Shown: positions 1 through 19,526 of the stretch, one piece after another | Numbering within the stretch: position 1 is the stretch's first letter | Layout: the number at the start of each line of letters is the position of its first letter | Source: Candidatus Woesebacteria bacterium RIFCSPHIGHO2_01_FULL_39_32 | GTDB taxonomy: Bacteria; Patescibacteriota; Microgenomatia; UBA8517 | DNA: 64,000 nt | NCBI GenBank assembly: GCA_001792345.1 | Contig: MGGJ01000012.1 | Location: forward strand, 6,091-70,090 | Direction: 5' to 3' | The notes under the pieces: model-generated | Told to the model about the DNA's origin: nothing | Database searches by the model: none | What the model saw: only the letters and a program-made list of their open reading frames with translations | Translations under genes and position numbers: made by a program

Positions 1-458
1 TTATTGTTCCCGAGGGTATTAAGCCCGTAGAGCGCGCTCCAACTGCAAGACCTAGAATCCGTCAACTTACGCCTGATGCTGGTACAGTGGTTGCTTCAGG
101 GGCTTTTGTCTGGCCTACAAGCGGGCAAATTTCTCAAGGATTTGCTTGGTATCACAAAGGAGTAGATATCGCTAATAGATCGGCCCCTGATATTTTAGCT
201 GCAGATTCCGGAACGGTTGTGGTTGCAGGTTGGCCAGATAACTATGGATACGGCAATAGGGTTATCATAGATCATGGAAACGGTTACAAAACCTTGTACG
301 GACATTTATCAAAGATTTATGTAGTTTCAGGACAAACCGTATCTCGTGGTTCGGCTATCGGTAAGATGGGTTCAACTGGTCGTTCAACTGGAAATCACCT
401 TCACTTTGAAGTTGTTAAAAATGGAACCTACATTAGTCCTCTAACAGTCCTTCGATAA
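1..458 (+). CDS. M23/LytM-family metallopeptidase (5'-partial; frame open from window start)
   Basis: Frame 3 is open from nt 3 with no upstream stop, so the gene starts outside the window. Motifs HGNGYKTLYGHLS and GSTGRSTGNHLHFEV (the HxH motif) are typical of M23 peptidases. Confidence 0.8.
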   Translation, partial: IVPEGIKPVERAPTARPRIRQLTPDAGTVVASGAFVWPTSGQISQGFAWYHKGVDIANRSAPDILAADSGTVVVAGWPDNYGYGNRVIIDHGNGYKTLYGHLSKIYVVSGQTVSRGSAIGKMGSTGRSTGNHLHFEVVKNGTYISPLTVLR

Positions 459-535
459 ATTCTACTTAAAACTTTTCTTTGAAATTTAGATATCATTCGA
501 CATATACGATATACTTCATACTAAATACAAATTTC

Positions 536-606
536 GGGCCGTTAGTACAGTGGTAATATACACCCTTCGCATGGGTGAGACATCGGTTCGATTCCGATAC
601 GGTCCA
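536..606 (+). tRNA. tRNA-Ala (anticodon CGC)
   Basis: Cloverleaf: acceptor GGGCCGT/ACGGTCC with the G3:U70 wobble pair (the Ala identity element). Anticodon stem CACCC/GGGTG with loop TTCGCAT gives anticodon CGC. T-arm GGTTCGATTCC. CCA is not encoded. Confidence 0.75.
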
Positions 607-634
607 CACGTCAGAAATCGACTTTTCCGCTTCA

Positions 635-652
635 TTCCGATTTTCATCGGAA
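635..652 (+). terminator. Hairpin downstream of tRNA (TTCCGAT-tttc-ATCGGAA) followed by a T-containing stretch; possible tRNA transcript terminator
   Basis: 7-bp perfect inverted repeat with 4-nt loop, read directly from the sequence. Confidence 0.25.
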
Positions 653-776
653 TTTCGCTCATCAGTCGTTTCTTCCTCTCAAAATTGCAAAGCGATTTTG
701 TAATAATACGTAATTCATAATATTTAATGATATATAAAGATATAATTTGTAATTCTTATTGATATTTAGGTAGTAT

Positions 777-1316
777 TCAGGGAACTGGGGAAAGAATTGT
801 TTGAGAGGATCTCCAAAATAAAAAGATAATAATACTTAAAATTGCTACAACAATTATTGTAATGATTATCAGCTTCGTTTTTTTGTCAATTTCTAATTTT
901 TGAGCTTCTCTAACTGGAGGAACTTGAGTTGGTTGATTTGCTGGTTGTAATATACTTGTTTCTAAAGCCATACTATCTCTCGCGACTCTTACCACAGGTG
1001 TTTCAGGAATATTTATTTCGCGAACCGGTCTATCTATTATTTTAAAATTCTCTTTTCTATCAATGAGTGAAATTTCTGATGGTTCTTGGAGTATCTTTTC
1101 TTCTATCTTTCTAATTCTAGGATGTGTTTCGGAAGCTCGTTCATATTTTCTTCCAAAAACAGAATCCAGATCATTCTTCTTAAAATATCTATGACCTCCC
1201 GGAGAGCGATAGGATTCAAGTTTTCTTTTTTTCTCCCATCGCCTCAAAGTATCTATTGAAACTCCTAGATATTCAGATGCTTGACCTATTGTCATTAAGT
1301 CGAGTTTGTCTGGCAT
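777..1316 (-). CDS. Membrane-anchored DNA-binding protein: N-terminal excisionase/MerR-like HTH (HTH_17-like), linker, C-terminal TM helix
   Basis: N-terminus MTIGQASEYLGVSIDTLRRWEKKRKLESYRSPGGHRYF is an excisionase-family HTH. C-terminus KLIIITIIVVAILSIIIFLFW is a TM helix. It is a paralog of the N-terminus of the 2526-aa giant protein (47714..55294). Confidence 0.6.
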   Translation of the reverse strand: MPDKLDLMTIGQASEYLGVSIDTLRRWEKKRKLESYRSPGGHRYFKKNDLDSVFGRKYERASETHPRIRKIEEKILQEPSEISLIDRKENFKIIDRPVREINIPETPVVRVARDSMALETSILQPANQPTQVPPVREAQKLEIDKKTKLIIITIIVVAILSIIIFLFWRSSQTILSPVP

Positions 1317-1375
1317 ATAAATATGGCAAGAATACCTTATTTTGCATATATTTGTAAAGATTTAGCGAACGAAAT

Positions 1376-1666
1376 TTGGTACAATTAAATAAATTTATGA
1401 GAGGAAATAAACACACAATCCTTCACAGGGTGGTTATGATTTCCTACACTGTGTTATTTAATGTCATCGAAATGATTATCTGTTTATTTATAACTTTCTT
1501 AGGATTTTATTTTTACAAATCAACTAATTATCCTTTTAGACTAATATTTGCAATTCCCTTTATCTTTTTAGGATTAGGAATTGCAATTCACAGCATTATA
1601 AATGTTTACCTTGTCATCTTTTCACAAAAGTATAATAGTGGAATTTGTATTTTCTGCCGAGATTAA
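1376..1666 (+). CDS. Small hypothetical membrane protein (2 predicted TM)
   Basis: ORF with two hydrophobic segments, divergent from the HTH gene. No recognisable domain. Confidence 0.3.
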   Translation: MVQLNKFMRGNKHTILHRVVMISYTVLFNVIEMIICLFITFLGFYFYKSTNYPFRLIFAIPFIFLGLGIAIHSIINVYLVIFSQKYNSGICIFCRD

Positions 1667-2081
1667 GGTATAATTCTTCACTTTTAAAATTGATCTATTT
1701 TGTGCTATTGACTACTTTATTTTCATCGATTAAAAAGTAGTTGACTCCTTGCGACTGCCCCGTAAGAGAATGAGTTGATACTGCCCAAATTACTGATATG
1801 TTATTGTGGGCAATATTTACATTAGGATTCCTCTTTGGGGTTTTTCTGGCACTTTCCGTTTTTCTAAAAAAGGACATAGTTGAAGGAAGCTATAATGAGA
1901 AGTTTGTATCATTGAAATCCGAATCGACCGATCCCTGGTTTATCCATAAGAATTTGATTAGAGTAAATACCATCGCAAGAAAAGTCTCGAGAACTGACAG
2001 ACCGGGTACATTAATTGCGGAAACTCCGGATATCAAACCCGCTCTTGGTGTTTCTACATAAATTGAGATACAATTTTTAGA

Positions 2082-3890
2082 ATGTATCCGAGTCAAACTT
2101 CGTTGATTCCTGTTATAGTTTCTTTATCTAAATTCTTTATAGAAAATGGTTTTACATCAATACATAGGTGGTATCCATATTGGTATTTAGGCGTACCTTT
2201 TAGGTATTTAACCGGACCTGTTGTACCGCTATCAGTTTATCTATTAGATAGTGTTTTTACTCATACCTCACTATTTACAATAATTATTTATCTAACTCTT
2301 GCTAGTTTGTTAACCGGAATTGTAGGTTGGGCGATTTTAATTAACAAAATAAATAAAGGAAGGATGTTAGGTTTTGTTTTTGCTTTAATTTATGCAATAA
2401 TGCCGTGGAAATATTTTCAGGCATTTTACCTGGACGAGGCTTCATTTGTAATCGCAAGAAATTTTCTTCCCTTTTGTTTAATTTTAGTGTGGAATTTGTT
2501 GGGACGGAATAAAGCTAAAGAATTTATTTTTGCTTCCTTTAGTATTTCATTTTTGTTTCTAATTAACACAAGCATACTACCAATATTGATTGTCGGTTTA
2601 GTAACCGTCACTCTCGCAAAAAGTTTTGAAAAAAGTAGGATAAAGGGTTTGTTAGTTCAGCTTAAACTTCTGTCTTTTCTGGTCGTATCAAGCTTATTAT
2701 TAGTTACTTTCGTTTGGTATACGCCGAATTATTGGTGGACGATTTTAACCAACCCATCATTGGGTGGAAACCCGGTATATAGAGTAATCTATCAGCTTTT
2801 CAACTCACTCAGATTCGCTTTACCAATTTTTGTTGCTGTTTTTGTAGTCTACTTCAATTATAAATTTAAAGAAAAATTGAAAATATTTACATTAGTTTGG
2901 CTGGCTGTTTTTATCTTTTTGACAGTTTATAGAATGCTTCAGGATATTGATTTTTGGATGGATTGGACTAGCTGGTTTTTTGAAATAGAAATCGGTGTTA
3001 CATTAATTTTATCAATTTCGATTTATCCCATATTGAAAAGATTTATTTATAGGAATTTCAAATTAATTAAGGAGTCACAAATAGCAGATGATAAGACTAG
3101 CAATTTATCAATGAGACTTAATAAGTACTACCTACTTCTTATTTTAATTTTTTTACTTCCCTTTTACTTTGTTTGGCGGATTCACAAACTAGTGGGGACA
3201 CAAGAAGTATTTACAAATAAACCTCCTGAAATTATCAAAAGCGTCGAAAAGCTTTCCGAACTTGCGGGCGGTGAAAGAGTATTTATTTCGGGGTCAGGAG
3301 TTTTTTGGGCGAACTCTCTATATAATTTGAATCAGGTGCGGGGTGGGGTGGATAAGGTAAGCATCCACCCACTTTGGCAGCATGGTGCATATCAAATAAG
3401 AGAAGGAAATGACTCAGAACTTACCCGCTTATGGTTAAAAAGTTTGGGAGTAGAGTGGGTTTTGGTACACGGTGGAAGGTCTTCCGACTATTTTAAAGAT
3501 TTTAGTAATTTAGACAAATGGGATAAAGTGGGAGAGATGGCATGGGAAGGAAACGGGGATAGAATTTATAAAATAGTGGATTCAGGTTTGGTTTGGGGAG
3601 GTAATATTACTTTGAATCAATTACCTATAGCCCCACAGAGAGGGGATGATCTTAATGGACTTCAGCAATATATTCGTTTATTGGAGGAGAAATTACCTTA
3701 TGAATACAGTAATGCAAGAATTGAAATAGCAGATGTTTCAGATTTTGAGTTTATAATTGTACTTATCACCTTTGACAAAGGTTGGGAAGCATTTAACGAA
3801 AAAGGAAATAAATTGAATGTATTAAGAGATTCCTTCGGACACATGATAGTTGAAACGCTTAATTCTCAGAAGATATTCCTTCACTATTAA
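2082..3890 (+). CDS. Polytopic membrane protein with C-terminal soluble domain; putative GT-C-type glycosyltransferase
   Basis: About 12 hydrophobic segments in the first ~400 aa, then a hydrophilic ~200-aa domain. The N-terminal region resembles that of 9508..10827. Confidence 0.55.
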   Translation: MYPSQTSLIPVIVSLSKFFIENGFTSIHRWYPYWYLGVPFRYLTGPVVPLSVYLLDSVFTHTSLFTIIIYLTLASLLTGIVGWAILINKINKGRMLGFVFALIYAIMPWKYFQAFYLDEASFVIARNFLPFCLILVWNLLGRNKAKEFIFASFSISFLFLINTSILPILIVGLVTVTLAKSFEKSRIKGLLVQLKLLSFLVVSSLLLVTFVWYTPNYWWTILTNPSLGGNPVYRVIYQLFNSLRFALPIFVAVFVVYFNYKFKEKLKIFTLVWLAVFIFLTVYRMLQDIDFWMDWTSWFFEIEIGVTLILSISIYPILKRFIYRNFKLIKESQIADDKTSNLSMRLNKYYLLLILIFLLPFYFVWRIHKLVGTQEVFTNKPPEIIKSVEKLSELAGGERVFISGSGVFWANSLYNLNQVRGGVDKVSIHPLWQHGAYQIREGNDSELTRLWLKSLGVEWVLVHGGRSSDYFKDFSNLDKWDKVGEMAWEGNGDRIYKIVDSGLVWGGNITLNQLPIAPQRGDDLNGLQQYIRLLEEKLPYEYSNARIEIADVSDFEFIIVLITFDKGWEAFNEKGNKLNVLRDSFGHMIVETLNSQKIFLHY

Positions 3891-4239
3891 CTTCTACCTT
3901 TTTTCAGAACGTTTGCTGAACGATTTAGCCTTCAATAAGATATCAATAAAAAGTCTGAGTAACTTATAATATAGGACGTACTCCGAAAAAATATAAAGAC
4001 AATTCCATTAAATTAGAACAATTATTTTATCCTAAATTAATCTCTATTATTCGGACACATATTCAAAGTATAGAACATTAGTCACATTATAAAGGATGCA
4101 ATAATCCTCTTACTATGTAATCATTTATAAAGTTATCAAAATACACTTCGATAGCTAGCGAGGGGGGTGGAAGAATTATAAATTTTTATTTTTTCTTATC
4201 GTCTTTTTTAGATTAAGGCTAAGATAATACAAAACACCA

Positions 4240-4270
4240 TTGACAAACGTTACCCATTTAATGTTAACAT
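4240..4270 (+). promoter_or_regulatory. Candidate sigma70-like promoter (TTGACA ... TAACAT) ~85 bp upstream of the 1529-aa fusion gene
   Basis: TTGACA at 4240-4245 and an AT-rich -10-like hexamer 17-19 nt downstream. Read by eye. Confidence 0.2.
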
Positions 4271-4352
4271 TAATAGCTGAAGCTATTTTTAAGCACATGA
4301 GTAAATAATTATGTAAACAGCTGTTTAAATCTATTTTTAATTAAACCTGCCC

Positions 4353-7300
4353 ATGAAGACAAAGTTAACTTCGGATAAAAGGTATGAATTAATTCAAAAA
4401 GCACTAAAGGGTGAACCTCTAAAATTGCTTTGCCAGGAATACGGTATTTCCACAGCTTTATTTAACAGATTGCTTCGGCGTTACGAACAATATGGTAAGA
4501 AAGGTTTGATTGCAGGGAAACCCGGAAGAAAAAGAAAATCAAGAGTTCCGAAGAAGATAGAATTCAGACCGCTTTCTCCGCATGAACGCTTACGAATTGT
4601 CGAAAACATTATAAATGAAGGCGAATCAGTTTCGGATGTTGCACGACAATATCAAACTTCAAGAAATACTATCTATAAATGGTTGAAAAGATACCGAGAA
4701 AGCAATAAAGAGAAAATATCGGCATTTGAGGACAAAATCCCCGAAGTTAGAAGATATTACCGCCAGTCTCCCGCCCTTTATCAGGATGCTGTTCTTTCTT
4801 TAGTCGCCAAACATCCCGAATTCGGCGTCAGAAAAATTGTATCTAATTTACCTCAAATAGGAGCTAAGCCGATTCTGGGTCACCATGGAGTTCAAAATAT
4901 TTTAAGAAGACAAGACCTTTCGACATATGAGCAAAGACTGGTTTACTCCCAAGCTAAAGAAACACCCGTAATCCGTGGAATTTCAGATTTGCTTACTTAT
5001 GTTGCGAGATTCTTTGCACTTCCATACGAGAGCAGAAGAAAAGTAATTCAAATCTTTTACACTTTTGCTTTTTCGGCGATTACAACAATTTTTATTTTAG
5101 GTTTAGGGAATTATATAGCCACTTCTTTTTCGAAGATTCCAGACGTAAATCCGATCGGTTACTTCTTTGCCACAATAGCTCTAGTCATGGGAGGATTATT
5201 CTTCCTTTACTCAATGAAGTATTTTCTGACTCTTGCTCTTGTTCTTTCGTATTCACAGACAGAGGCAAAAGGTGAAAGACAAGATCTAGGAGGTAAAAGA
5301 AATGGTTTTCTCTCCTGGATATTAGGATTAGGTAATGGAAACAATAATGGGATTTATCCAAACGCAAGATTGAGTCTGGAGAATGGAAAATCAGGTGTCA
5401 GCGGTCTTGAACCCAATCTTTCCCACATTAAACTAGATAGATACCCCTTCATATCAGTCCACATACCCTTATACAACGAAAAATATGTAGCCGAGCGTGT
5501 AGCCAAAGCAGTAACCAACTTTGAGTACGGATCAACCCACTCACCGCAAGACTATGAAGTAATCCTCTGTGACGATTCTACCGATGAAACAACGGCAATT
5601 ATCAGAAACTATATGGCAAAGCATCTTGCCAAAGGAGAACACTTACATACTATTGTTAACAAAGAAGAAGGTTGGGAACTAAGTAAAGTAGAGGTAAGAG
5701 CTGGAGTAACATTAAAACATTTACACCGTACTACAAGACAAGGTTTCAAGGGTGGCGCATTAAAACTGGCTCTTACCCTCTGTGACCCCCGTACAGAATT
5801 TGTAAGTATCTTTGACGCAGACTTTGTTCCATATCCGGATACCTTGGAGCTATTCCTAAAGTATTTCAAAGCAACAGCAGGAACCCTCGACTTCGCTCAG
5901 GACAAGGTGGCACTGAGGCAATCTAACATAGCGGCAGTCCAGGGATACCAATGGCACGTATTAAATAAATCCGAAAACTGGATCACAAGGGGAGTAAGAA
6001 GTGAATATGCAGGAAGCTATGTAATTGAGAGGAGTGGTCAGGAAATATACGGAGGTTTAAAACATATTTCAGGTGCAGTCTACCTTATCAGAAAAGACGT
6101 TTTAGATGAAGTAGGCTGGGAAACATCAATAACCGAAGATTATGAATTAACACTAAAACTATACGAGAAAGGTTACAAAGTAGTCTACACTCCTTATATC
6201 CAAGCACCGGCTGAGTGTGTCTCAACCCTTAAAAGACTCATCAGACAAAGAATGAGATGGGCAGAAGGCCACAGCCATAATGTGAGGAAGATGTTTGGTA
6301 GGTTAATGTTTGGACGTTGGGAAGAGATTGGTACTAATAATCCGGCCTTTGCAAATGATCGAATTACTAATTACTCTAATTATTCTAAACAAGCACCAAG
6401 CACCAATGACAAAATTGGAAAATTGGGTATTGGGAATTCTTTAGATCAATTAGAAATTAGAAATTTACAAAAGAAGTTCATTCCCTCTCCTCTTACTCTT
6501 TCTGAAAAACTAGAATTTGCCTACAATGCTCCTTACTACCTCCAAGCCTTCTTCTTCCTTATTGGTACCATCTCTTGGTTAATATCAGAAACTATATTCA
6601 AAACATCTCTACCATTCTGGAGTCAGCTTTGGGGATGGAGCCTAGTATTAACTAACATGCTAGCTTTACCTTTAATGAACTCAGTGGGCTTATTTTTGGA
6701 AGAGAGCGAGGAAAAAGACTATGGAGGCATATTATCATTTATTGTCCTATCCTACATTGTCGTACCCTTCCAAGCCTATGCATCAGTAAAAGGTTTTCTT
6801 GAACACGAAGAAGGAACATGGTTTAGAACTCCTAAAACAGGAAGGATTACAGACATCTTCACAAGAGGACGCTTCTACAGATTCATTTCTGGAATACTTC
6901 CAAGGCGTGCAGAACAAGTTGTCAACAGCCAGTTGTCAGTAGCCACTAACTATATTTCTTTAGCTACAGCAAATAACAGATTTGATAAAGGCGACATGAT
7001 AAGTAGTAATAAAACTAAGATCAGATGGGTTGGAAAAGTAACATTTGTTTTTTCTTTAATAGCAACCCTAATTACATATCAGACTGTGATTCTTGATTAC
7101 CAAGGAAGGTTGGAAGGACCTGCCAATATTTTAAATGGTAGACAAGCTAGTTTGTCAAGCAGCAAGAAAGTTTTTTCAAGTGCGGAAAATCCAAGATTCA
7201 CTCTGAGCTTAAAGAATAAAAAAGTGAAGAGTACATCAATATTTAGGAGATCTACAATCTATGCTGCACAGAAAGACAGCATAGATGTCGATGTATATTA

Positions 7301-8942
7301 TTTGGATCGAAGGGCTGATCTGCCGGTTGAAATTAAACGCAAAGATGACAATATTTATGATATTGAGATAGGAAATAAAGACAATCTTTCCCCTGGTGTT
7401 TACAACCTTGTTGTAAAAGGTACAACATTGGGTGATGAATTTGAAGTCGAAAAGAAATTTAGTTGGGGTGTTCTGGCATTTAACACTACTAAAAGTGTAT
7501 ATGAACCGGGTGAACGGATAAAAATGGGTGTTGGTGTTGTTGATGACGCAGGAAGAACTATATGTGATGCGAAGGTCAACCTGTTTATTACGGTTCCTTC
7601 GGAGGGAAAGACTTATGAACTTTCAACCAATAACGGATTGCTGCGTCAAAGCGGGGAATGTTTGCGGGATAGCATTACAAATAAGGCTGATTATGAGGCA
7701 GAGTTTACGGCCAGGAGTGTTGAGGAAACTTATTCAGTACTACTGGAAGCAGAAAGCTATAATGGTAAAAAATCGGTAGAAGAAAGCATAGTTATTCGTG
7801 ACAACTTACCCTTTATTGTTGAGAGGGTTTCTTATCCGACCAGAATTTACCCACCGGTAAGCTATCCTGTTAAATTAAAAATAGTAGCAAATCAAGATTT
7901 TGAAGGGAGTATTATCGAGAGTTTTCCGAATAGCGAGTTTGTGGTTTATGAAGTAGGGGAAGGCGGAGAAAGAAAAGAAAATAAAATTGTCTGGAAAGTC
8001 AATCTAAGAAAAGGCGAGACTTACGAGTTAGATTACACGCTTGGCTTTCCTATGATATCTCCCGCCTTTTATTTAATCGGGCCTCTAACTTTTGTCGAGA
8101 GCGAAAAGATGATTTTTAGGGAGGAAAAACCTTGGCAAGTGGCGGCTGATTCCATAACGTTTCAGGAACTTGATTCAGGTGTAATCGAAAGCTCTACCGC
8201 GACTATTACGTCCGTGACGACAGCCACCAATTCAACGGCAGTCAACAATCATTTATATTTAGCTGTAGTGACTACAAAAGGTAATAGATCAGTAGATAGT
8301 GTTTCGGGATTGGGTTTAAGCTGGAGCCTAGTTGATAGTCAGTGCGGAGACCGTCAACAGACTAATTTGGCAGTATTTAAAGCTCTCGGAAGCCCTTCGG
8401 GAGATGGTGCGGTTACAGCGAACTTAAACGGTGGTACAGCTTATTCCGGAGGGGCTACCATCGGAGTGTATCGTTATAGTGGCGTAGATATTGCAAGCCC
8501 GATCGGAAATACTGAAAAAGCAAATACGGGTGGTGTTGGGGCGTCGGCAGGAGTTTGTGATACTACAGGAACTGACACGAACAGTTACAGTTTTTCAACC
8601 CTTGATACGTCACAAGCCAACTCCATGGTTTTTTCTGCAGCCTCAAATCGTACTAGAACGCACACCGAAGGGACTAACTACAACGAACGGGGGGATTTTA
8701 GAACCGGAAGTTCAGGAGATTCAGCCGCCCAGGCAGTACAGGATCAAATTTTTGCCAGTCAAACAACAAACCTTACAGTAGACGGGACATGGAGCGGTGT
8801 TGTTGATTGGGCGGTTGTTGCAATCGAGATTAAAACACCCGAAAACTTACTGCTTTTGACCTTGCTTTCGCCGGTTTTGTTCATAAAACTTAAGTCTATA
8901 AAAAAGAGGAAAAAAGGATTGAAAAAATCAAAAAAGGACTAA
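4353..8942 (+). CDS. Multidomain fusion: N-terminal double HTH (transposase/sigma-like), TM, processive family-2 glycosyltransferase (D, DxD, ED, QxxRW), TM bundle, ~700-aa extracellular domain, C-terminal hydrophobic+polybasic sorting-signal-like tail
   Basis: HTH: LLCQEYGISTALFNRLLRRY and SVSDVARQYQTSRNTIYKWLKRY. GT2: VHIPLYNE, ILCDDSTDET, FDADFVPYPD, QRMRWAEGH. C-terminus: IKTPENLLLLTLLSPVLFIKLKSIKKRKKGLKKSKKD. Confidence 0.75.
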   Translation: MKTKLTSDKRYELIQKALKGEPLKLLCQEYGISTALFNRLLRRYEQYGKKGLIAGKPGRKRKSRVPKKIEFRPLSPHERLRIVENIINEGESVSDVARQYQTSRNTIYKWLKRYRESNKEKISAFEDKIPEVRRYYRQSPALYQDAVLSLVAKHPEFGVRKIVSNLPQIGAKPILGHHGVQNILRRQDLSTYEQRLVYSQAKETPVIRGISDLLTYVARFFALPYESRRKVIQIFYTFAFSAITTIFILGLGNYIATSFSKIPDVNPIGYFFATIALVMGGLFFLYSMKYFLTLALVLSYSQTEAKGERQDLGGKRNGFLSWILGLGNGNNNGIYPNARLSLENGKSGVSGLEPNLSHIKLDRYPFISVHIPLYNEKYVAERVAKAVTNFEYGSTHSPQDYEVILCDDSTDETTAIIRNYMAKHLAKGEHLHTIVNKEEGWELSKVEVRAGVTLKHLHRTTRQGFKGGALKLALTLCDPRTEFVSIFDADFVPYPDTLELFLKYFKATAGTLDFAQDKVALRQSNIAAVQGYQWHVLNKSENWITRGVRSEYAGSYVIERSGQEIYGGLKHISGAVYLIRKDVLDEVGWETSITEDYELTLKLYEKGYKVVYTPYIQAPAECVSTLKRLIRQRMRWAEGHSHNVRKMFGRLMFGRWEEIGTNNPAFANDRITNYSNYSKQAPSTNDKIGKLGIGNSLDQLEIRNLQKKFIPSPLTLSEKLEFAYNAPYYLQAFFFLIGTISWLISETIFKTSLPFWSQLWGWSLVLTNMLALPLMNSVGLFLEESEEKDYGGILSFIVLSYIVVPFQAYASVKGFLEHEEGTWFRTPKTGRITDIFTRGRFYRFISGILPRRAEQVVNSQLSVATNYISLATANNRFDKGDMISSNKTKIRWVGKVTFVFSLIATLITYQTVILDYQGRLEGPANILNGRQASLSSSKKVFSSAENPRFTLSLKNKKVKSTSIFRRSTIYAAQKDSIDVDVYYLDRRADLPVEIKRKDDNIYDIEIGNKDNLSPGVYNLVVKGTTLGDEFEVEKKFSWGVLAFNTTKSVYEPGERIKMGVGVVDDAGRTICDAKVNLFITVPSEGKTYELSTNNGLLRQSGECLRDSITNKADYEAEFTARSVEETYSVLLEAESYNGKKSVEESIVIRDNLPFIVERVSYPTRIYPPVSYPVKLKIVANQDFEGSIIESFPNSEFVVYEVGEGGERKENKIVWKVNLRKGETYELDYTLGFPMISPAFYLIGPLTFVESEKMIFREEKPWQVAADSITFQELDSGVIESSTATITSVTTATNSTAVNNHLYLAVVTTKGNRSVDSVSGLGLSWSLVDSQCGDRQQTNLAVFKALGSPSGDGAVTANLNGGTAYSGGATIGVYRYSGVDIASPIGNTEKANTGGVGASAGVCDTTGTDTNSYSFSTLDTSQANSMVFSAASNRTRTHTEGTNYNERGDFRTGSSGDSAAQAVQDQIFASQTTNLTVDGTWSGVVDWAVVAIEIKTPENLLLLTLLSPVLFIKLKSIKKRKKGLKKSKKD

Positions 8943-8943
8943 T

Positions 8944-9486
8944 ATGAGTAGAAAGGACCTTATCAGATCAATCTTAGCAATAGTCGTTATCACTTTATTG
9001 GTAATGCCTCTGGTACTGACCTTTAACGAGATTCTTACAAAGGTCTTTGAGAAATTTACCCTCTATAATTTGCTTGAGAATTTCTGGGTTCCTATTCAAG
9101 TGCGTATCGTTGGTCTTGTGGTTAGATCATTTGATCTTAGTTATATTCCTATCAAGGGGGGAATGATAGTGAACGGTATTGAAATGAAAATGACTTGGAA
9201 TTGTTTGGGCTGGCAGTCCATTCTTCTTTTTTCGATATCGGCAATCCTTGGTTTGTCGGGTTCAAAAGCAACTTTCTTTTCGAAATTTCAAACTTTATTT
9301 CTTGGCCTATTTTTTCTATTTTGGTTGAATATTGCCAGGATAACGACAACTGTACTTTTGGCGGTTTACTCAATGCCTATATTTAGAATTGTATATCATG
9401 ATTTATTTGCAGCGATATTGACAATATTTTTTCTTATTTTCTTTTGGTGGTTTTCTTACTCTTTTCTTTTGACTGAAAAAATCTGA
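8944..9486 (+). CDS. Small polytopic membrane protein, candidate miniature exosortase/archaeosortase-family transpeptidase
   Basis: 180 aa with ~5 TM segments. Cys in TWNCLGWQS, an N-x-x-R motif (LNIARI) and a His (VYHD) recall the exosortase Cys/Arg motifs. It lies 2 nt downstream of a protein ending in a TM+polybasic tail. Confidence 0.45.
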   Translation: MSRKDLIRSILAIVVITLLVMPLVLTFNEILTKVFEKFTLYNLLENFWVPIQVRIVGLVVRSFDLSYIPIKGGMIVNGIEMKMTWNCLGWQSILLFSISAILGLSGSKATFFSKFQTLFLGLFFLFWLNIARITTTVLLAVYSMPIFRIVYHDLFAAILTIFFLIFFWWFSYSFLLTEKI

Positions 9487-9507
9487 TAAATATATAATGT
9501 TATAGAA

Positions 9508-10827
9508 ATGGATGCTGGAATTCCCAAAGAGTCAGAGACAATTGCTTCCAAAAGAAGCAAACGTCTGGCGGAGAAAATTGGACGATCAGGTGTATCAGGC
9601 GTGGTCTTTCGCAGCTGGAAGAACAACCGTTTTACCGAAACATTTGCCGTAGTGATTCTATTAATTGTTAACCTGTATAGTATTTATCCCTTTTTCGGAA
9701 CATCGGCATCAGATGCTTTTTTTTCTGGACCTGTGATTCCAATATTGGCAAAAGCATTTGTGATACTTAGTGGACATTCTTTCTCCAATTCTGTTCAGAT
9801 AATCAATATAGTTTTTTTCTTAGGTTTTCCTATTTCACTTTATCTTTTTATAAGAAGTATCACCGATAGGAAATTAATAAGTGTACTTGCCGTTTCTATT
9901 GCAAGTCTGACTACGTATCCTTTTGCCGAAACCAGAATTTCTACATCACTTTTGGGTGTTGATGCAGCCCATATTGCAAGCCTAACAATTATCCCAATAG
10001 CTTTAATAGGGCTTTTGAATTTTGTAAAGAGGGGGGGAGTGAACAATTTAATGATTGCAGTTGTTTTTGCGGCCTTAGTTGCACTTACTTCACCTTTCGG
10101 ATTTCTGACATATGCAATATTTGCAGGAATAATTTCTTTTTCTGAGCTGTTATTGGGTGGAGGGAGGCTAAAGCTCGCGAGATTTCTTACAATACTAATT
10201 GTATCTGGAGGTTTGACATCCTTTTGGTACAATCCTTCATTTTTCTTTTGGATGATTATTGGACCATTGGGGGAAAACATACGTTTTACAGTATCGAAAT
10301 TATTTCCGATTACTTTTTTTACACTGCCGCTACTTGGTGCTTTTGGCTACTTGATGTTTGACAGGAAACCAACACTTCAACCTCTTTTTATAGCAAGTTT
10401 TTTCAGCATAACCTATGCAATTATTTCTTTGGCGGGAGGTGGTATCTTTCCCTCGCATCCATCAAGGTATGTACCGGAATTCGGAGTATCAATGTCTTTA
10501 ATATTGAGTATCGTGATTGTTAAATTATCGGATTTTATTAAACTGGACGAACGGATCAGTTTAGCAAAGACGACCCGAAGTGTTTTTTCAAACACATTTT
10601 TGGTTCTTGTATTTTTTCTTTTGGGATTTTCTATCGTATCAGAGAGATCAAAATTTGAAATGGAAAAGAAAGACGTTCTTGGTGTTTGGGATGAAGTGGA
10701 GAAGGGGGAAATTTGGGAATCGAGAGAGAAATTCTCGGGAGGACATTCAGTTTGGGGATATAGTGTTACCGGATTGACTATTATTGGTTTAGGAGTTTTA
10801 GTCAGAAATTCTAAGAAGAGAATGTGA
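9508..10827 (+). CDS. Polytopic membrane protein (about 11 TM), putative GT-C-like glycosyltransferase
   Basis: Hydrophobicity pattern. The N-terminal region is similar to 2082..3890 (YPFFGTSASDAFFSGPVIP vs YLGVPFRYLTGPVVP). Confidence 0.55.
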   Translation: MDAGIPKESETIASKRSKRLAEKIGRSGVSGVVFRSWKNNRFTETFAVVILLIVNLYSIYPFFGTSASDAFFSGPVIPILAKAFVILSGHSFSNSVQIINIVFFLGFPISLYLFIRSITDRKLISVLAVSIASLTTYPFAETRISTSLLGVDAAHIASLTIIPIALIGLLNFVKRGGVNNLMIAVVFAALVALTSPFGFLTYAIFAGIISFSELLLGGGRLKLARFLTILIVSGGLTSFWYNPSFFFWMIIGPLGENIRFTVSKLFPITFFTLPLLGAFGYLMFDRKPTLQPLFIASFFSITYAIISLAGGGIFPSHPSRYVPEFGVSMSLILSIVIVKLSDFIKLDERISLAKTTRSVFSNTFLVLVFFLLGFSIVSERSKFEMEKKDVLGVWDEVEKGEIWESREKFSGGHSVWGYSVTGLTIIGLGVLVRNSKKRM

Positions 10828-10909
10828 AGTAATCTTGATATTATTAATTGCTTTTTTGTTTCTATCCTCGGATACTCAATAACCTTGGCAAGTATTTTGG
10901 GGTTGGGGA

Positions 10910-12088
10910 TTGTTACAGGGGTTCAAAAATCGGAACATAAGAATTATAATGTGGAAGGTAAAGAACGCAAATATGACTAGCGATTACAAAAAGCACCTGT
11001 ATGCATTAGTCTTGGCTGGTGGTCCTGGGAAAAGGCTGTGGCCGCTGTCAACAGAAAAGACTCCTAAGCAATTCTTGAGGCTTTTTGCCGGTAAAACACT
11101 CTTTGAATTGACAATTGACAGGGTTCGAAAATTATTGCCATGGAAGAGAATATATGTAGGCATAGTTGGCAATAAATATAAAGAAATAATTCTTGGTCTT
11201 TGCCCGAGGTTACCACCTGCTAACATCATTGTCGAGCCTGAAGGACGTGATAGCGGACCCGCACACGGTCTGGGAGCTTTGTATATACGAAAGAAAGACC
11301 CCGATGCAGTAATAGTTAATGCAGCAGCTGATCAAATAATTGACCCCGAGAAAAATTATCTTAAAGCTATGAGTGTCGCCGCTGAATATGCATATGGATC
11401 AAAGATGCTGATTGCTGTGGGAGTGGTACCTTCTTATGCTCATACCGGAGTTGGCTACATTCACAAAGGCAAAAAACTTTCAAGAATTAGTAAAACGGAT
11501 ATATTTAATATTGATAACTTTACTGAAAAGCCAAGGTCAAGAATCGCCAGAGATTATATTAACTCAGGGAAACATTTTTGGAATGCTAACAATTATGTCT
11601 GGAGAGCAGATGTATATCTATCTGCGCTTAGAAAACACGCAAAAAATATTTACAAATGGTTAGAACTAATTGACAGAGCACTAGGCACAAACAATGAAAA
11701 AACAGCTTTAAAAAAATATTTTCCGAAGGTGCCTAAAATTTCTATAGATTATGCAATATCTGAAAAGGCGAAAAATTTTGCCATGATTATCGGGGAGTAC
11801 TATTGGAGTGATGTTAGCAACTGGCAAGAGGTATGGAACAATCTAGAAAAAGATAAAGCAAAAAATGCCGTCTATTCATTTACACACCCGAAAAACTTAA
11901 CTATTCTTCTGTCTGCTAAGGATAATTTGGTTGTAAGCGCGGGAGTGGATGTTGTTGTAACCAAAGTAAAAGGATTGGTTATTGTTGCATCCCAAAAAGG
12001 AGTGTTGATTACCAAAAAGGAATATTCCCAGGATGTTAAGACTGCAGTCTCACTTTTGATGGATAAAAAAGCCACATTGGGAAATTGA
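10910..12088 (+). CDS. Sugar-1-phosphate nucleotidyltransferase, mannose-1-phosphate guanylyltransferase-like
   Basis: LVLAGGPGKRLWPLS (the GGxGxRLxPLS motif of ManC/CpsB-type NTP transferases). The true start is probably the internal Met near 10976. Confidence 0.75.
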   Translation: MLQGFKNRNIRIIMWKVKNANMTSDYKKHLYALVLAGGPGKRLWPLSTEKTPKQFLRLFAGKTLFELTIDRVRKLLPWKRIYVGIVGNKYKEIILGLCPRLPPANIIVEPEGRDSGPAHGLGALYIRKKDPDAVIVNAAADQIIDPEKNYLKAMSVAAEYAYGSKMLIAVGVVPSYAHTGVGYIHKGKKLSRISKTDIFNIDNFTEKPRSRIARDYINSGKHFWNANNYVWRADVYLSALRKHAKNIYKWLELIDRALGTNNEKTALKKYFPKVPKISIDYAISEKAKNFAMIIGEYYWSDVSNWQEVWNNLEKDKAKNAVYSFTHPKNLTILLSAKDNLVVSAGVDVVVTKVKGLVIVASQKGVLITKKEYSQDVKTAVSLLMDKKATLGN

Positions 12089-12133
12089 CGATATGCTATA
12101 GTTAATTTTCAATACGAAGGCAATTCACGAAAT

Positions 12134-13003
12134 ATGAAGAATTTTAAAAAAGTTTCTGCACCCGTGCGAGTTGATATATCAGCATGTTGGCCTGATTGTG
12201 ATCCTTATAGGCAGGATTATGGAGGATTTTTACTAAACGCAGCCATCAAACAGCGAGTTTATACCAGGAGGCTAAATGGCGACTTTGTTTGTTCAGTGAG
12301 GGAAGTTCCTACAAATAGTGGACTTGGAGTGTCTGCTGCGATAAGAACTACCTTTATGATTGCGTCTAATCCTGCAATTTTAGACAAGTTCTCACTCACC
12401 GACAAGATATTTAAAGTTTATACATTTGAGAATCAAGTTCTCCATCATCGAGCGGGTTTGCAGGATCAGGCAGCCGCTTTGGAAGGAGGAGTTAACCTTT
12501 GGGAGTTCAGAAAAGATAACAAGGTTAATAAATATCCGATAGAGCGAAAACGGACTAAACATTTAGAAAAAAGACTGGTTATTATTTATACAGGGCAAAA
12601 ACATGAATCTGTAGATATGCATAACATTGTCTTTTCACCTAAAAACTATAAAAAAATTATTCCTGCAATAAAGCAAATGAGCAAAGTGGCAAAGCTAATG
12701 GCAGGGCAAATTGATAATCAGGTTGCGATGACTGATTTGATAAATGAATCCAGAGAATTGCATAGAAAACCGTTTTCGGGTGTTGTAACAAACACAATGA
12801 AAGTACTGGCAAGTAGACTAAAGGGAGGTTACTTAGCATGGAAAGCAACGGGTGCTGGTGGTGGCGGGAGCATGCTTTTCTATACTCCTGACACAAAAGC
12901 CTTGATAAAGTTTTTTAATAAGATTCGAAGGCAAAAAAATCTTCCAAAAGAGTCCAAAATATTTCCTGTTAAGTTCGACTACAAAGGACTTATTGTTAAA
13001 TAG
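12134..13003 (+). CDS. GHMP-family sugar kinase
   Basis: GHMP motif 2 PTNSGLGVSAAI and motif 3 KATGAGGGGSMLFY. It is adjacent to the nucleotidyltransferase, suggesting a kinase-plus-pyrophosphorylase NDP-sugar salvage pair. Confidence 0.65.
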   Translation: MKNFKKVSAPVRVDISACWPDCDPYRQDYGGFLLNAAIKQRVYTRRLNGDFVCSVREVPTNSGLGVSAAIRTTFMIASNPAILDKFSLTDKIFKVYTFENQVLHHRAGLQDQAAALEGGVNLWEFRKDNKVNKYPIERKRTKHLEKRLVIIYTGQKHESVDMHNIVFSPKNYKKIIPAIKQMSKVAKLMAGQIDNQVAMTDLINESRELHRKPFSGVVTNTMKVLASRLKGGYLAWKATGAGGGGSMLFYTPDTKALIKFFNKIRRQKNLPKESKIFPVKFDYKGLIVK

Positions 13004-13103
13004 GCTTTAACTTAAAGTACTTGGCGATTAATAATTACCACTTATCTAATTTTAATTCATATTGCAAATACAAATGGTTTAGAATAGAGTAGTTGGCGAA
13101 AAG

Positions 13104-14363
13104 ATGAAATCTAAAAATCAAAAACCAAAGATAGGGTTTTTCCATTGCTCTTTTGTTTACTCTGGAGGAGGAGAAAGGATTGCATTGGAGGGAGTGTTGG
13201 GGCTTCGTAAACGAGGGTATGAAGTAGATTTATATGCTCCAGCTATTGATTGGGAAAAGTGTTACCCATCGCTATTAAAAAAAGCCAGGCCAAGACCAAT
13301 TCTTTTTTCCTTTCCTCGCTTCATTCCCTTTAGTGATGCAATGGATATGGGTTTTTCTTCGTTTCTTGCTCCACTTCTTTTTTCTAAGTTTAGAAGATAT
13401 GATGTTTTTATTGGTGAAAATCAACCAGGAGTTTGGCTTGCTTGGGTATATGCGAAACTTCTAAGAAAGCCTTATGTGATTTATTTGAATCAGCCAAACA
13501 GGATGATATACCCGCGTTCAATTGATGTAAGTACTGGTTGGAGGGCTAATAAAAATTTTGTACTTTTGCAAAAGCTTATACGCCCAGTCAAACCCCTAGT
13601 TTGGTATCTTGATAAGGTGTCGACTAGAGAAGCTAATTTTCTGACAGTCAACGGTAATTACATTGGGAACGTAATTTCAACAATTTACGGCAAAGAGTTT
13701 TTAGAGTGTCCAGCTGGATGCGATCCTTTTCCTCACGGAAAGTTAAGGTTAAGTAAGGATAAATACTATAAAGGAATTATCAAAGTAAATGGGCATACTA
13801 TCGAAAAGCCATATATTCTCCTTACTAATCGTCATTACCTTCAAAAGCGTTTCGACTATGCGATTTCGGCAATGCCTTATGTCTTAAAGAAATTTCCTAA
13901 AGTAAAGCTTGTAATAACAGGTGCATTTACGGATGTGACTTCCCAGTGGCAAAACTTGGCCAAAAAGTTAAAAGTAGAAGGAAATGTTATCTGGCTTGGG
14001 GAGGTAGATGATAAGTACATGGGAGAGCTTTACGAAAATGCTGCAGTTTATGTTTATACCGCTCCGAATGAGGACTATGGAATGGGAGTTGTGGAGGCAG
14101 AAGAATTTGGTGTACCGGTAGTGGCTTGGAAGAGGGGTGGACCAACAGTAACGATTGAAGATAAAGAAACAGGTTTCCTAGCAAAACCTTACGAGGTTAA
14201 AGATTATGCAGATAAAATCATTTGGCTTCTTGAGAATCAGGAAAAAAGGATTGAGATGGGAAAAGCTGCGCATGAGCATGTCCAGAAAAACTTCACCTGG
14301 AAGCACCATATAGATGTATTGGAAGGTGCAATACTTGATGCTCTCGCAGACAAAAGGCTTTGA
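13104..14363 (+). CDS. Glycosyltransferase family 4 (GT-B, retaining)
   Basis: N-terminus FHCSFVYSGGGERIALE. C-terminal E-X7-E region YTAPNEDYGMGVVEAEEFGVPVVAW. Paralog of 33797..35044. Confidence 0.8.
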   Translation: MKSKNQKPKIGFFHCSFVYSGGGERIALEGVLGLRKRGYEVDLYAPAIDWEKCYPSLLKKARPRPILFSFPRFIPFSDAMDMGFSSFLAPLLFSKFRRYDVFIGENQPGVWLAWVYAKLLRKPYVIYLNQPNRMIYPRSIDVSTGWRANKNFVLLQKLIRPVKPLVWYLDKVSTREANFLTVNGNYIGNVISTIYGKEFLECPAGCDPFPHGKLRLSKDKYYKGIIKVNGHTIEKPYILLTNRHYLQKRFDYAISAMPYVLKKFPKVKLVITGAFTDVTSQWQNLAKKLKVEGNVIWLGEVDDKYMGELYENAAVYVYTAPNEDYGMGVVEAEEFGVPVVAWKRGGPTVTIEDKETGFLAKPYEVKDYADKIIWLLENQEKRIEMGKAAHEHVQKNFTWKHHIDVLEGAILDALADKRL

Positions 14364-14379
14364 AGCAATTATATTTGCA

Positions 14380-15087: not shown

Positions 15088-15197
15088 AGATGGGGGAGAA
15101 AGCTCACGAATTTGCTCAAGATAACTTCAGCTGGAAACATCACGTGGATGTACTTGAAAAAGCAATGTTGAATGCTATAGAAGGTAAAAGATTATAA
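15088..15197 (+). pseudogene. Orphan 3' relic (36 codons) of a GT4 gene
   Basis: Translates to EMGEKAHEFAQDNFSWKHHVDVLEKAMLNAIEGKRL*, clearly homologous to the C-terminus of 13104..14363 (EMGKAAHEHVQKNFTWKHHIDVLEGAILDALADKRL*). No upstream ORF body. Confidence 0.45.
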
Positions 15198-15737: not shown

Positions 15738-15880
15738 AGGTTATGTATAAATGTAACATTCATATTTCAGTCAGTAAATAATCAGGTAAAAATTAGTGAA
15801 ATTCTATCTTGGTATACAATCCAGTCAAGATTACTTAGAGTCAATTACTTATATATGAAATTTTTGATATAGTTTATTGT

Positions 15881-19479: not shown

Positions 19480-19526
19480 ACCTCCGTGGGCTAAGAACCC
19501 ACGGATTTCAAGGAGTTTGAATAAAC

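Follow-up and report, generated by a model that had tools for sequence, protein, structure and literature searches.

A glycan synthase of Microgenomates bacteria with an N-terminal helix-turn-helix module, a sorting-type C-terminal tail, and an adjacent mini-exosortase gene

Results

Organization of the synthase gene and integrity of its reading frame

The gene analysed here is located at positions 4353..8942 on the forward (+) strand of a 64,000-nucleotide stretch (hereafter the window; all coordinates refer to it) of contig MGGJ01000012.1 from Candidatus Woesebacteria bacterium RIFCSPHIGHO2_01_FULL_39_32, a bacterium belonging to the candidate phyla radiation (CPR). It encodes a membrane-bound synthase of glycosyltransferase family 2 (GT2) and is followed directly by a small gene at 8944..9486 (+) for a polytopic protein of the exosortase family (hereafter mini-exosortase). 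Based on the open reading frame (ORF), Pfam, NCBIfam, comparison of relatives, and database identity, the synthase is composed, from the N-terminus, of three helix-turn-helix (HTH) units, two transmembrane (TM) helices, the GT2 synthase domain, a membrane domain, an ectodomain, and a C-terminal tail of the VPE type. The frame is continuous over the entire gene, starting with ATG and including zero internal stops, and the product of 1529 aa is an exact match to OGM24024.1, OGM38023.1, and OGM64367.1 (UniRef100_A0A1F8BJX3), annotated as 'hypothetical protein A2715_02500' of the same bacterium. Since the identical protein was found in three NCBI Woesebacteria assemblies on a total of nine contigs, the record of this synthase is independent of any single assembly.

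A protein search against 5.8 billion proteins gave a total of 221 matches to the synthase at E<=1e-5, and both the HTH and GT2 Pfam domains were present in 111 of 120 relatives among the matches listed. The relatives P0003 and P0014 (proteins and loci of this analysis are numbered with P and L, respectively) align in a single chain across 94-95% of the synthase length, and the identical order of domains was observed in more than 100 relatives from independent samples, with protein lengths ranging from 900 to more than 3600 aa. By a scan of one genome per species, 143 stretches coding for synthase relatives were detected and 74 loci were retrieved, which according to record titles belong mostly to Woesebacteria, Curtissbacteria, Chisholmbacteria, Gottesmanbacteria, and Daviesbacteria, and also to 'Microgenomates', CPR3, and one Nealsonbacteria. 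The architecture that an earlier sequence-only reading, made from the letters and ORFs of the window, had described from this one gene is now found in other CPR genomes, mostly Microgenomates. With more than 200 database proteins and 74 genomic loci showing this layout, it is not a chance feature, and the synthase belongs to a large family that is specific to Microgenomates (CPR). In public annotation the relatives are named 'hypothetical', 'glycosyltransferase', or 'cellulose synthase-like/transposase', the '.../transposase' form being used by JGI. Many public bins with a locus of the Microgenomates type (records L003, L007-L010, L016, L020, L022, and others) are titled 'uncultured Gammaproteobacteria', 'Bathyarchaeia', or 'Nevskiaceae', labels that are probably wrong, and one relative, P0363, terminates in ...RSEEHTSELQS, which we take to be a translated Illumina adapter.

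An artefactual origin of the HTH-GT2 fusion, in which a frameshift, an assembly join, or the remnant of an insertion sequence (IS) was called together with a GT2 gene, might be read from the transposase-like names given by JGI and from the uneven GC content along the gene (0.29-0.45). It is contradicted, however, by the continuity of the frame, by the same product in all these assemblies and contigs, by the domain order kept among independent relatives, and by the failure to find either a transposase catalytic domain or inverted repeats. From the database identity and the conserved architecture across loci, it follows that the fusion is neither a frameshift nor a join, and an artefact is considered extremely improbable. 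The sequence-only reading was right in treating the region as a single polypeptide and not as merged genes.

Synthase core and membrane topology

The GT2 catalytic domain of the GT-A type (5451..6290, +) was identified by Pfam, motifs, a sequence match to BcsA in PDB, and fold matches. The full set of D, DxD, ED, and QxxRW motifs, noted at the first inspection together with post-QRW TM helices, is present as CDDSTD (aa 406-411), FDADF (aa 487-491), TEDYE (aa 594-598), and QRMRW (aa 632-636), and two Pfam families, Glyco_tranf_2_3 (aa 367-638) and Glyco_trans_2_3 (aa 523-646), were matched above the cut-off. Hydrophobic segments of the core are located at aa 231-256, 268-298, 764-782, 792-810, and 896-914. 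The first two constitute the N-terminal pair of TM helices (aa 231-298; 5043..5246, +), assigned by hydropathy and by correspondingly placed long helices in the AlphaFold2 (AF2) model of P0005, a homologue of 1056 aa with 54% identity. The post-QRW membrane domain (6555..7094, +), assigned by hydropathy, alignment, and AF2 helices, is composed of TM or interface helices, a WFRTPKTG loop, and the last core TM helix (aa 896-914). The WFRTPKTG loop (aa 823-830), located after the QRW region, forms invariant columns in the family alignment and may be equivalent to the gating loop of BcsA and hyaluronan synthase (HAS) (FxVTxK or WGTR type). An 86-aa ORF on the opposite strand inside the GT2 domain (5609-5869, -) was rejected as a gene, since its 'homologues' in 22 loci arise only from reading conserved coding sequence in reverse.

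The P0005 model gave a mean predicted local distance difference test score (pLDDT) of 66.9 and a predicted template modelling score (pTM) of 0.47, with values of 80-93 for the HTH and GT2 parts. Foldseek comparison of this model with PDB yielded BcsA of Escherichia coli and Rhodobacter, hyaluronan synthases of Chlorella and Xenopus, chitin synthases, and plant CesA, all with the probability of 1.00, which bears out the proposal of a membrane-integrated GT2 of the processive type. Equivalog scores were far under the cut-offs for CelA (TIGR03030, 63.9 versus 699), PgaC (66.2 versus 422), and NodC (24.5 versus 550), and a weak similarity was detected to TIGR03111 (E 3.6e-4). Since the CelA, PgaC, and NodC equivalogs are missed widely, the synthase is a processive-type GT2 but not an orthologue of cellulose, poly-N-acetylglucosamine, or chitin synthase. 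With BcsA, HAS, chitin synthase, NodC, and PgaC it shares the GT-A domain with D, DxD, TED, and QxxRW, the flanking TM helices, and possibly the conserved post-QRW loop, whereas it is the only one among the synthases described here with an N-terminal HTH, a C-terminal ectodomain, and a sorting-type tail. No PilZ domain was included among the Pfam matches of the synthase. Positively charged residues are plentiful in aa 1-230 as well as among the last 17 residues, while none is present in the loop between TM1 and TM2; the HTH module and GT2 domain are most likely placed in the cytoplasm.

Ectodomain

The region between the last core TM helix and the tail is about 580 aa in length (aa 915-1494), shorter than the extracellular domain of about 700 aa estimated before. 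The AF2 model of aa 950-1529 (pLDDT 84.8, pTM 0.70) is all-beta with one long terminal helix. Module A (aa 915-1265; 7095..8147, +) is predicted by AF2, Foldseek, and a sub-threshold Pfam MG2 match to be a tandem array of macroglobulin (MG)/immunoglobulin (Ig)-like beta-sandwiches. Structural matches of the ectodomain by Foldseek include MG domains of complement C5, alpha-2-macroglobulin, and TEP1, integrin, and the surface-layer (S-layer) proteins Sap and SbsB. Module A is common to only about a dozen family members. Module B (aa 1266-1494; 8148..8834, +), a beta domain of about 225 aa rich in Gly, Thr, and Ser, belongs to no Pfam family and has 39-55% identity with domains of 16 proteins that lack GT2. 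Named sources are few, one 'Pvc16 family' protein of Anaerolineae and one InlB B-repeat protein, and several carry TIG or FlgD-Ig Pfam domains. Because the GC content of module B (0.42-0.45) is higher than in the rest of the gene, this module may have been acquired by transfer. Across the family the ectodomain region is highly variable, and includes DUF2341, LamG, and other domains.

C-terminal tail of the synthase family

The sequence-only reading had noticed a polar motif, a hydrophobic helix, and a Lys/Arg cluster at the C-terminus. These are confirmed at aa 1495-1529 (8835..8939, +) as TPEN (aa 1495-1498), the hydrophobic segment LLLLTLLSPVLFI (aa 1498-1516), and the basic cluster KLKSIKKRKKGLKKSKKD, with 10 Lys or Arg among the last 17 residues, and they recur as a family logo. 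In the logo of 131 distinct tails, called by hydropathy-based scans, T-[VI]-P-E-[NKIR] is followed by about 18 hydrophobic residues and then four Lys/Arg, with Val or Ile at position -1 (92%), Pro at +11 (61%) and +14 (74%) of the helix, and a median of 33 residues from PE to the C-terminus. The tails are strikingly alike across relatives although the preceding ectodomains are unrelated. A tripartite sorting signal is known to consist of a signature motif, a TM segment, and a basic cluster at the extreme C-terminus (bioRxiv 10.1101/2023.06.07.544157). The tail of the synthase has this layout, and its wording is closest to that of PEP-CTERM (VPEP).

Among 1354 ORFs of 80 aa or more in 1.1 Mb, the synthase genes not counted, the tail was found on six, four of which are C-terminal pieces of synthase genes. 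A tail profile of 42 positions, when compared with 1.84 billion representative proteins, gave 200 matches at E<=1e-3, mostly family members or short fragments. Nearly all carriers share the synthase core, and the few full-length carriers without GT2 (P0322, P0354, P0371, and P0391) possess an N-terminal signal anchor; P0371, with DUF2341 and LamG, is encoded just upstream of an HTH-GT2 gene. At L079 (3743-8693), a 754-aa ORF that has seemingly lost HTH and GT2 begins at the ...ATANNQFNNF... segment before the last core TM helix, and is followed by tail-bearing P0322 and then by an exosortase gene; this arrangement may show how stand-alone tail carriers arise.

In one subclass of synthases, VPE is kept and followed by a conserved cytoplasmic extension, ...GRFRKxGxNIFQEfGxaWKdLlxKLlGxxeeaLDeLPV (the LDxLPV subclass: P0007, P0017, P0033, P0035, P0041, P0042, P0048, P0080, and others; L016 10001-13453, L075, L076, and L077). 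In three of five cases (L075-L077) the synthase gene of this subclass is directly followed by a gene for a polytopic protein of about 620 aa with TPR-like repeats (617 and 622 aa; the L075 copy is 308 aa at a contig end).

Mini-exosortase and its linkage to the tail

The ORF for the mini-exosortase starts 2 nt past the stop codon of the synthase. The product of 180 aa contains four to five hydrophobic segments. It matches A2715_02505 of the same bacterium with 100% identity, and is proposed to be the cognate sorting enzyme based on TIGR04178, conserved residues, and adjacency. The score against TIGR04178 (exosortase/archaeosortase family protein) is 28.9 bits for the window protein versus the cut-off of 23, and all 70 relatives tested matched this model (best E 7.6e-11); weak matches to PF09721 were also observed for several relatives. 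A total of 136 relatives, 139-225 aa in length (nearly all 163-225), were found in Microgenomates, many of them called exosortase/archaeosortase by JGI. The segment W85-N-C87-x-G-W-Q-S92 and H152 are invariant in sets of 120 and 70 mini-exosortases, and N129 and R132 are conserved in 98-99% (R132 in 98%); Cys, Arg, and His constitute the catalytic triad proposed for exosortases (bioRxiv 10.1101/2023.06.07.544157). None of the 70 relatives reached a named Xrt, Art, or Crt subfamily, weak partial matches being to CrtC (36 of 70), XrtM (29 of 70), and ArtC (18 of 70), and the window protein is far below the cut-offs for XrtM (10.3 versus 125) and pacearchaeosortase (12.4 versus 80). A profile search found no relative of the mini-exosortase in PDB.

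The pairing of two genes is conserved. Within the 74 loci and the window, a mini-exosortase gene starts between -130 and +100 nt from the synthase stop codon in 27 genes, and 420-880 nt downstream in seven further synthases, making 34 in total within 900 nt. The contents of the 420-880-nt gaps vary: two of the intervening proteins are related to each other and membrane-anchored, while three small ORFs are unrelated and have no recognisable connection with the cassette; the candidate of a conserved third component was rejected. When the count was restricted to synthase genes having 700 nt or more of sequence downstream, a mini-exosortase gene was located within 900 nt downstream in 27 of 39 synthases with the plain tail, at 25 nt or less in most of them. 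Plain and extended tails do not differ significantly in this respect (adjacent/absent, 27/12 versus 5/6; p=0.17), whereas the LDxLPV subclass lacks an adjacent exosortase (0/5 versus 32/45 for the rest; p=0.004, a post hoc comparison). The P0322 gene (702 aa), itself located in a synthase locus, is followed by its own mini-exosortase gene (E 7e-62) with a 4-nt overlap; since P0322 has the tail and its own exosortase without GT2, the exosortase tracks the tail rather than the GT2 domain.

In a 'dedicated' sorting system, the target and the sorting enzyme are encoded regularly by consecutive or nearby genes (bioRxiv 10.1101/2023.06.07.544157), and the synthase-exosortase pair agrees with this one-to-one relationship. 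The 27/39 adjacency, the near confinement of the tail to the family, and the non-GT2 carrier next to an exosortase gene of its own make a dedicated exosortase signal the best interpretation of the tail. The earlier guess of a CTERM-type sorting tail, made without knowledge of the partner, has gained strong support from the exosortase-family gene 2 nt downstream and from the conservation of the gene pair. It is probable that the two genes form a 'sorted synthase' cassette, consisting of a polytopic synthase and a dedicated mini-exosortase that acts on its tail. The architecture and its conservation, the assignment of the partner to the exosortase family with Cys, Arg, and His, the gene adjacency, and the near exclusiveness of the tail all support this.

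Several observations weigh against such a cassette. No NCBIfam CTERM model, PEP-CTERM included, was matched by three tails at E<=10, and the sample of ORFs used for the exclusiveness of the tail is skewed to synthase neighbourhoods. In the available flank of 12 of the 39 plain-tailed synthases no exosortase gene was found, several of these being upstream members of tandem arrays. Because the LDxLPV subclass adds a cytoplasmic peptide and is without an adjacent exosortase, VPE and the helix may also play a structural role in an uncleaved protein. Everything beyond the gene pairing is argued by analogy, the AF2 model of the full-length homologue P0005 is only moderate, and about five to six core helices would still hold a cleaved synthase in the membrane, which puts the purpose of 'sorting' in question. 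In addition, the 25 Pfam families listed at E<=1 for the full-length synthase do not include PF07589.

An alternative function of the C-terminal helix is that of a permanent anchor or an integral part of the synthase, in the manner of the BcsB TM helix on BcsA, with the exosortase-like neighbour processing other proteins or aiding glycan export. In the BcsA-BcsB complex (PDB 4hg6), BcsB indeed consists of a large outside domain and a single C-terminal TM helix, the same topology as here. The LDxLPV subclass and the 12 plain-tailed genes without an adjacent exosortase are also in line with an anchor, and the two conserved prolines of the helix could reflect packing. On the other hand, the top 50 Foldseek matches of the ectodomain, whose fold is MG/Ig-like, do not include BcsB, the same tail is present on the synthase-free proteins P0322, P0354, P0371, and P0391, the first of which adjoins its own exosortase, and the combination of motif, TM helix, and basic end with a consecutive gene for a sorting enzyme is what the literature describes as a dedicated sorting system. 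A permanent anchor is thus considered unlikely. Apart from the tail, the synthase differs from bacterial cellulose synthase BcsA or a BcsA-BcsB fusion in the lack of PilZ and of a CelA score above the cut-off, and in an ectodomain that is not BcsB-like.

Many genomes contain two or more synthase(-exosortase) cassettes in tandem, the ectodomains being unrelated to each other, as observed at L001, L002, L008, L010, L013, L017, L022, L023, L032, L037, L045, L049, L053, L068, and L072, while the window contains a single cassette. No synthase paralogue was found elsewhere in the 64-kb window. Three other very large ORFs of the window, 42656-46741 (-; 1361 aa), 47714-55294 (-; 2526 aa), and 22207-25302 (+; 1031 aa), are without the VPE tail and are not paralogues of the synthase.

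N-terminal HTH module

The N-terminal module of the DNA-binding type (4365..4922, +), predicted to be cytoplasmic, consists of HTH1 (aa ~5-55), a basic linker KPGRKRKSRVPKK, HTH2 (aa 73-120), and an HTH_32 unit (aa ~106-190), that is, three HTH-type units across about 190 aa (aa ~5-190), in place of the two in about 120 aa that had been recognized at first. HTH1 and HTH2 form an internal repeat, and HTH_28 matches two stretches of the N-terminus. For aa 1-230, the scores above the Pfam cut-offs (in parentheses) are 67 bits (25) for HTH_28, 57.5 (24.6) for HTH_23, 54.3 (28.1) for HTH_29, 40.1 (24.1) for HTH_Tnp_1, and 34.6 (33.7) for HTH_32, together with a weak match to PAX. The NCBIfam model of IS481 transposase (NF033577) aligns aa 79-208 with its profile positions 2-122 of 284 at 75.6 bits versus the cut-off of 224; the DDE catalytic part of the profile is unmatched, and the synthase does not contain a full IS481 transposase. 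Sequence matches in PDB are a tandem-HTH protein, IstA of IS5376, and Pax5. Of the resemblance to transposase or sigma-region-4 domains suggested earlier, the DNA-binding fold of the transposase type is borne out by these Pfam, NCBIfam, and PDB matches, whereas Sigma70_r4 is absent among the 25 Pfam families listed for either the whole protein or aa 1-230 (30 families being matched for the latter).

The module is present in essentially every family member. Its best-conserved parts in the family alignment are the near-invariant GHHGVQN motif, carried by the HTH_32 unit, and the stretch running into TM1. As judged from sequence comparison, the module has a transposase-derived HTH fold and probably binds DNA. 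It has the same consecutive HTH units with a basic linker as the N-termini of IS481, IS630, IS3, and IS21 transposases and the paired (PAX) domain, but differs from those transposases by the lack of the DDE domain and of terminal inverted repeats, and by being joined to a membrane enzyme, an arrangement conserved across a bacterial class.

Promoter element of the synthase genes

A family-specific promoter, which may also function as an operator, was identified at 4240..4269 (+), 84 nt ahead of the start codon. It is composed of TTGACA and TAACAT, separated by 19 nt in which GTTACCCA and an imperfect dyad are located; the -10-like sequence TGTTAACAT runs to 4270, one base beyond the 30-nt match. 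In general, the composite element consists of TTGACA, N4-6, (G)(T)TACCCA, N5-7, and (G)GT(T)AACA(T), with the dyad GTTACC...GGTAAC between the -35 and -10-like boxes. By a regular expression on both strands of 1.11 Mb, a total of 29 occurrences were identified, of which 28 are directly upstream of GT2-family ORFs, and the copy at 4240-4269 is the sole match in the window even when three mismatches are allowed. In tandem arrays (L001 and L002), each gene has its own copy. Two classes can be discriminated: a long class with the 19-nt spacer, GTTACCCA...TGTTAACA, and HTH1 of the ISRxLFYRW type, and a short class with a spacer of 16-17 nt, AGTACCCA...GGTAACA, and HTH1 of the SRKTxYxW type.

A second box resembling TGTAAACA or TGTTAACA is located near the start codon at 4312..4319 (+); it was recognized by eye and is weak, as are similar start-codon boxes at L004, L005, L011, L025, L027, L028, L039, L065, L069, and L076. 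Because the element terminates only 8-22 nt ahead of the start codon in some loci, leaderless mRNAs or mRNAs with a very short leader are suggested. A variant, GTTAGTATGG-N3-GGTAACA, occurs three times in the 612-nt MerR-synthase intergenic region of L017 (9387-9998) and once each in L021 and L045. No Rfam match was obtained at E<=1 in the 462-nt upstream region, and inverted repeats in this AT-rich upstream region alone are not distinguishable from chance. A generic promoter scan found 19 promoters versus 15.2 expected from shuffled sequences and missed the conserved motif.

One possible function of the HTH module is that of a sequence-specific, membrane-tethered autoregulator, which would act on the dyad of its own promoter and couple expression to the state or amount of the synthase. 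In favour of this are the presence of the module in essentially all family members, the near restriction of the motif within 1.1 Mb to positions ahead of synthase genes, 28 in number (with a unique copy in the window), the separate copy for each tandem gene, and the pairing of two motif classes with two HTH1 sequence classes. This pairing, however, is confounded by phylogeny, the two classes being paralogue clades, and the motif may be merely a strong promoter with a conserved spacer. Moreover, a MerR-family gene is divergent from the synthase in at least 10 loci with the 19-nt-spacer promoter, usually next to the first synthase of the locus (L001 9297-9704, L002 891-1301, L007, L009, L010, L016, L069, L075, L076, and L079; most of the products are about 100 aa). 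In the window, a MerR-family HTH protein of 179 aa with a C-terminal TM helix (777..1316, -; Pfam MerR, MerR_1, and HTH_17) is a candidate regulator of the synthase promoter. Classical MerR-type promoters have a dyad within a 19-nt spacer and lie beside a merR-like gene in divergent orientation, and the same arrangement is found in these loci. Since such a gene adjoins the promoter in at least 10 loci, the HTH module of the synthase is only one of two candidate binders of the dyad, the MerR-like neighbour being an equally good one. Autoregulation by the synthase is, on balance, a somewhat doubtful proposal.

A more tenable, though still tentative, view is that the module is a domesticated transposase domain that is no longer a transcription factor and instead serves as a non-specific tether to the nucleoid, or as a cytoplasmic regulatory or protein-interaction domain gating GT2, in a position corresponding to that of PilZ in BcsA; in that case the MerR-like protein or some other factor would recognize the promoter element. 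The lack of DDE, the confinement of IS481 similarity to profile positions 2-122, and the conservation of MerR-like genes as neighbours are in accordance with domestication, and GHHGVQN with the TM1-leading segment could equally be an interaction surface. Not easily accommodated are the three HTH units with the basic GRKRK linker, a combination characteristic of DNA-binding proteins of the bipartite kind (the paired domain and Tc1/IS630, for example), and the short-spacer promoters without an adjacent MerR gene. With ToxR, CadC, and BcrR, the synthase shares the order of cytoplasmic DNA-binding domain, TM, and outside domain, but its HTH is not of the OmpR/winged-HTH or XRE type, and the 'linker' is a complete glycan synthase.

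Gene neighbourhood

When the region 1-20000 of the window was compared with L001-L074, the conserved order of genes upstream of the synthase was M23 peptidase, membrane proteins of 96 and 87 aa, the 602-aa membrane protein, and (MerR), followed by [synthase-exosortase]n and, downstream of it, the 439-aa membrane protein, glycosyltransferase family 4 (GT4), a 562-aa membrane protein, and methyltransferases. The 602-aa polytopic membrane protein (2082..3890, +) is a syntenic partner with homologues in 31 of the 74 loci, usually just upstream of the synthase, and the 439-aa polytopic membrane protein (9508..10827, +) is another, with homologues in 16 loci downstream of synthase-exosortase pairs. 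No Pfam or NCBIfam family was assigned to the 602-, 439-, and 562-aa proteins, the last of which gave a faint match of the archaeal STT3 type.

A group of mannose-related genes is located at 10910-15737, including genes for a mannose-1-phosphate guanylyltransferase-like protein (nucleotidyltransferase with the ManC beta-helix), a GHMP kinase, GT4, a D-lyxose/D-mannose isomerase-like protein, and a Nudix protein weakly similar to GDP-mannose mannosyl hydrolase. As to the sugar used, these neighbours give a hint of GDP-mannose metabolism rather than UDP-glucose.

Discussion

Proposed function of the synthase-exosortase pair

The following sequence of events is proposed for the cassette. The protein would be inserted with its HTH module and GT2 domain on the cytoplasmic side, and the GT2 core would polymerise a nucleotide-sugar, most likely extruding the chain through its own membrane domain. 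The C-terminal region of about 580 aa would stand on the surface as a stalk of MG/Ig-like beta-sandwiches with the 225-aa domain at the distal end. The mini-exosortase, a putative cysteine protease or transpeptidase, would then cut at VPE on the outer face of the membrane, so that the basic tail is lost together with the last helix. As in the case of ArtA/PGF-CTERM and sortase, the newly formed C-terminus of the ectodomain may be passed to an acceptor, for which a lipid, the wall, and the glycan of the same enzyme are candidates. The HTH module would bind DNA, possibly at the dyad element in its own promoter.

Comparison with known sorting systems

Each part of this system is of a known kind, a GT2 synthase, an HTH of the transposase type, an exosortase, and a tripartite CTERM signal. 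The PEP-CTERM/XrtA (EpsH) system of Gram-negatives has the same signal, composed of VPE-x (typically VPEP there), a TM helix, and a basic cluster, and the same polytopic enzyme of the exosortase family with Cys, Arg, and His; its genes also lie in polysaccharide loci (PMC1569441). The mini-exosortase is, however, half-size (180 aa versus about 280-500), it forms one-to-one pairs of consecutive genes, as opposed to one enzyme for dozens of substrates, and the substrate is a glycan synthase in a monoderm CPR bacterium.

The nearest described system is that of XrtG in Firmicutes, in which a Firmicu-CTERM protein, XrtG, and two XrtG-associated GT2s are encoded by separate genes (PMC12854382), that is, a dedicated exosortase of a monoderm beside GT2s and a single CTERM substrate. 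In the synthase described here CTERM and GT2 are on one polypeptide, whereas XrtG systems are without the HTH module and the large ectodomain. Weak similarity is observed between the GT2 of the window and TIGR03111, and between three of 70 mini-exosortases and XrtG, with scores far under the equivalog cut-offs (19.5 versus 363.95). Archaeosortase A with PGF-CTERM, which in the S-layer glycoprotein of Haloferax replaces the helix by a lipid anchor, also employs the tripartite signal and an exosortase-family enzyme, and the ectodomain of the synthase resembles S-layer and MG-type beta-sandwich arrays. Differences are the VPE motif in place of PGF, the bacterial host, and the attachment of the substrate to a polytopic enzyme, and a lipid acceptor is hypothetical here. 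No description was found in a literature search of a synthase as exosortase substrate, of the HTH fusion, or of an exosortase system in CPR, and the combination of HTH, synthase, surface domain, and exosortase tail does not seem to have been described before.

Implications for the cell surface of CPR bacteria

Although exosortases are widespread in bacteria, to our knowledge neither their chemistry nor their acceptor is known. The present system is a minimal one, with two adjacent genes and an enzyme of 180 aa, so that the cleavage, the acceptor, and the link to polysaccharide become directly testable. It also reveals an annotation gap, as the small partner of the synthase is mostly labelled 'hypothetical'. 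Regardless of any role in transcription, the presence of a DNA-binding module of the transposase type on a membrane synthase, conserved across a whole class, is an uncommon instance of domain domestication.

A far-reaching version, which we regard as quite improbable, is that the cassette is a self-contained unit of surface display, in which the exosortase joins the ectodomain to the glycan made by the same enzyme or to its priming lipid, giving a covalent protein-glycan coat, and the HTH module tethers the synthase to its own promoter as an autoregulator. If this is the case, the coat would be of a proteoglycan or S-layer-like type, and the acceptor long sought for a bacterial exosortase would be identified. 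Through tandem cassettes whose ectodomains are unrelated, CPR cells would then have a variable and switchable surface for attachment to their hosts.

CPR bacteria (Patescibacteria) are mostly uncultured episymbionts with tiny genomes. Since the synthases are abundant, are often arranged in tandem with very different outer domains, and occupy a conserved envelope locus, they are good candidates for the apparatus by which these bacteria build and vary their cell surface.

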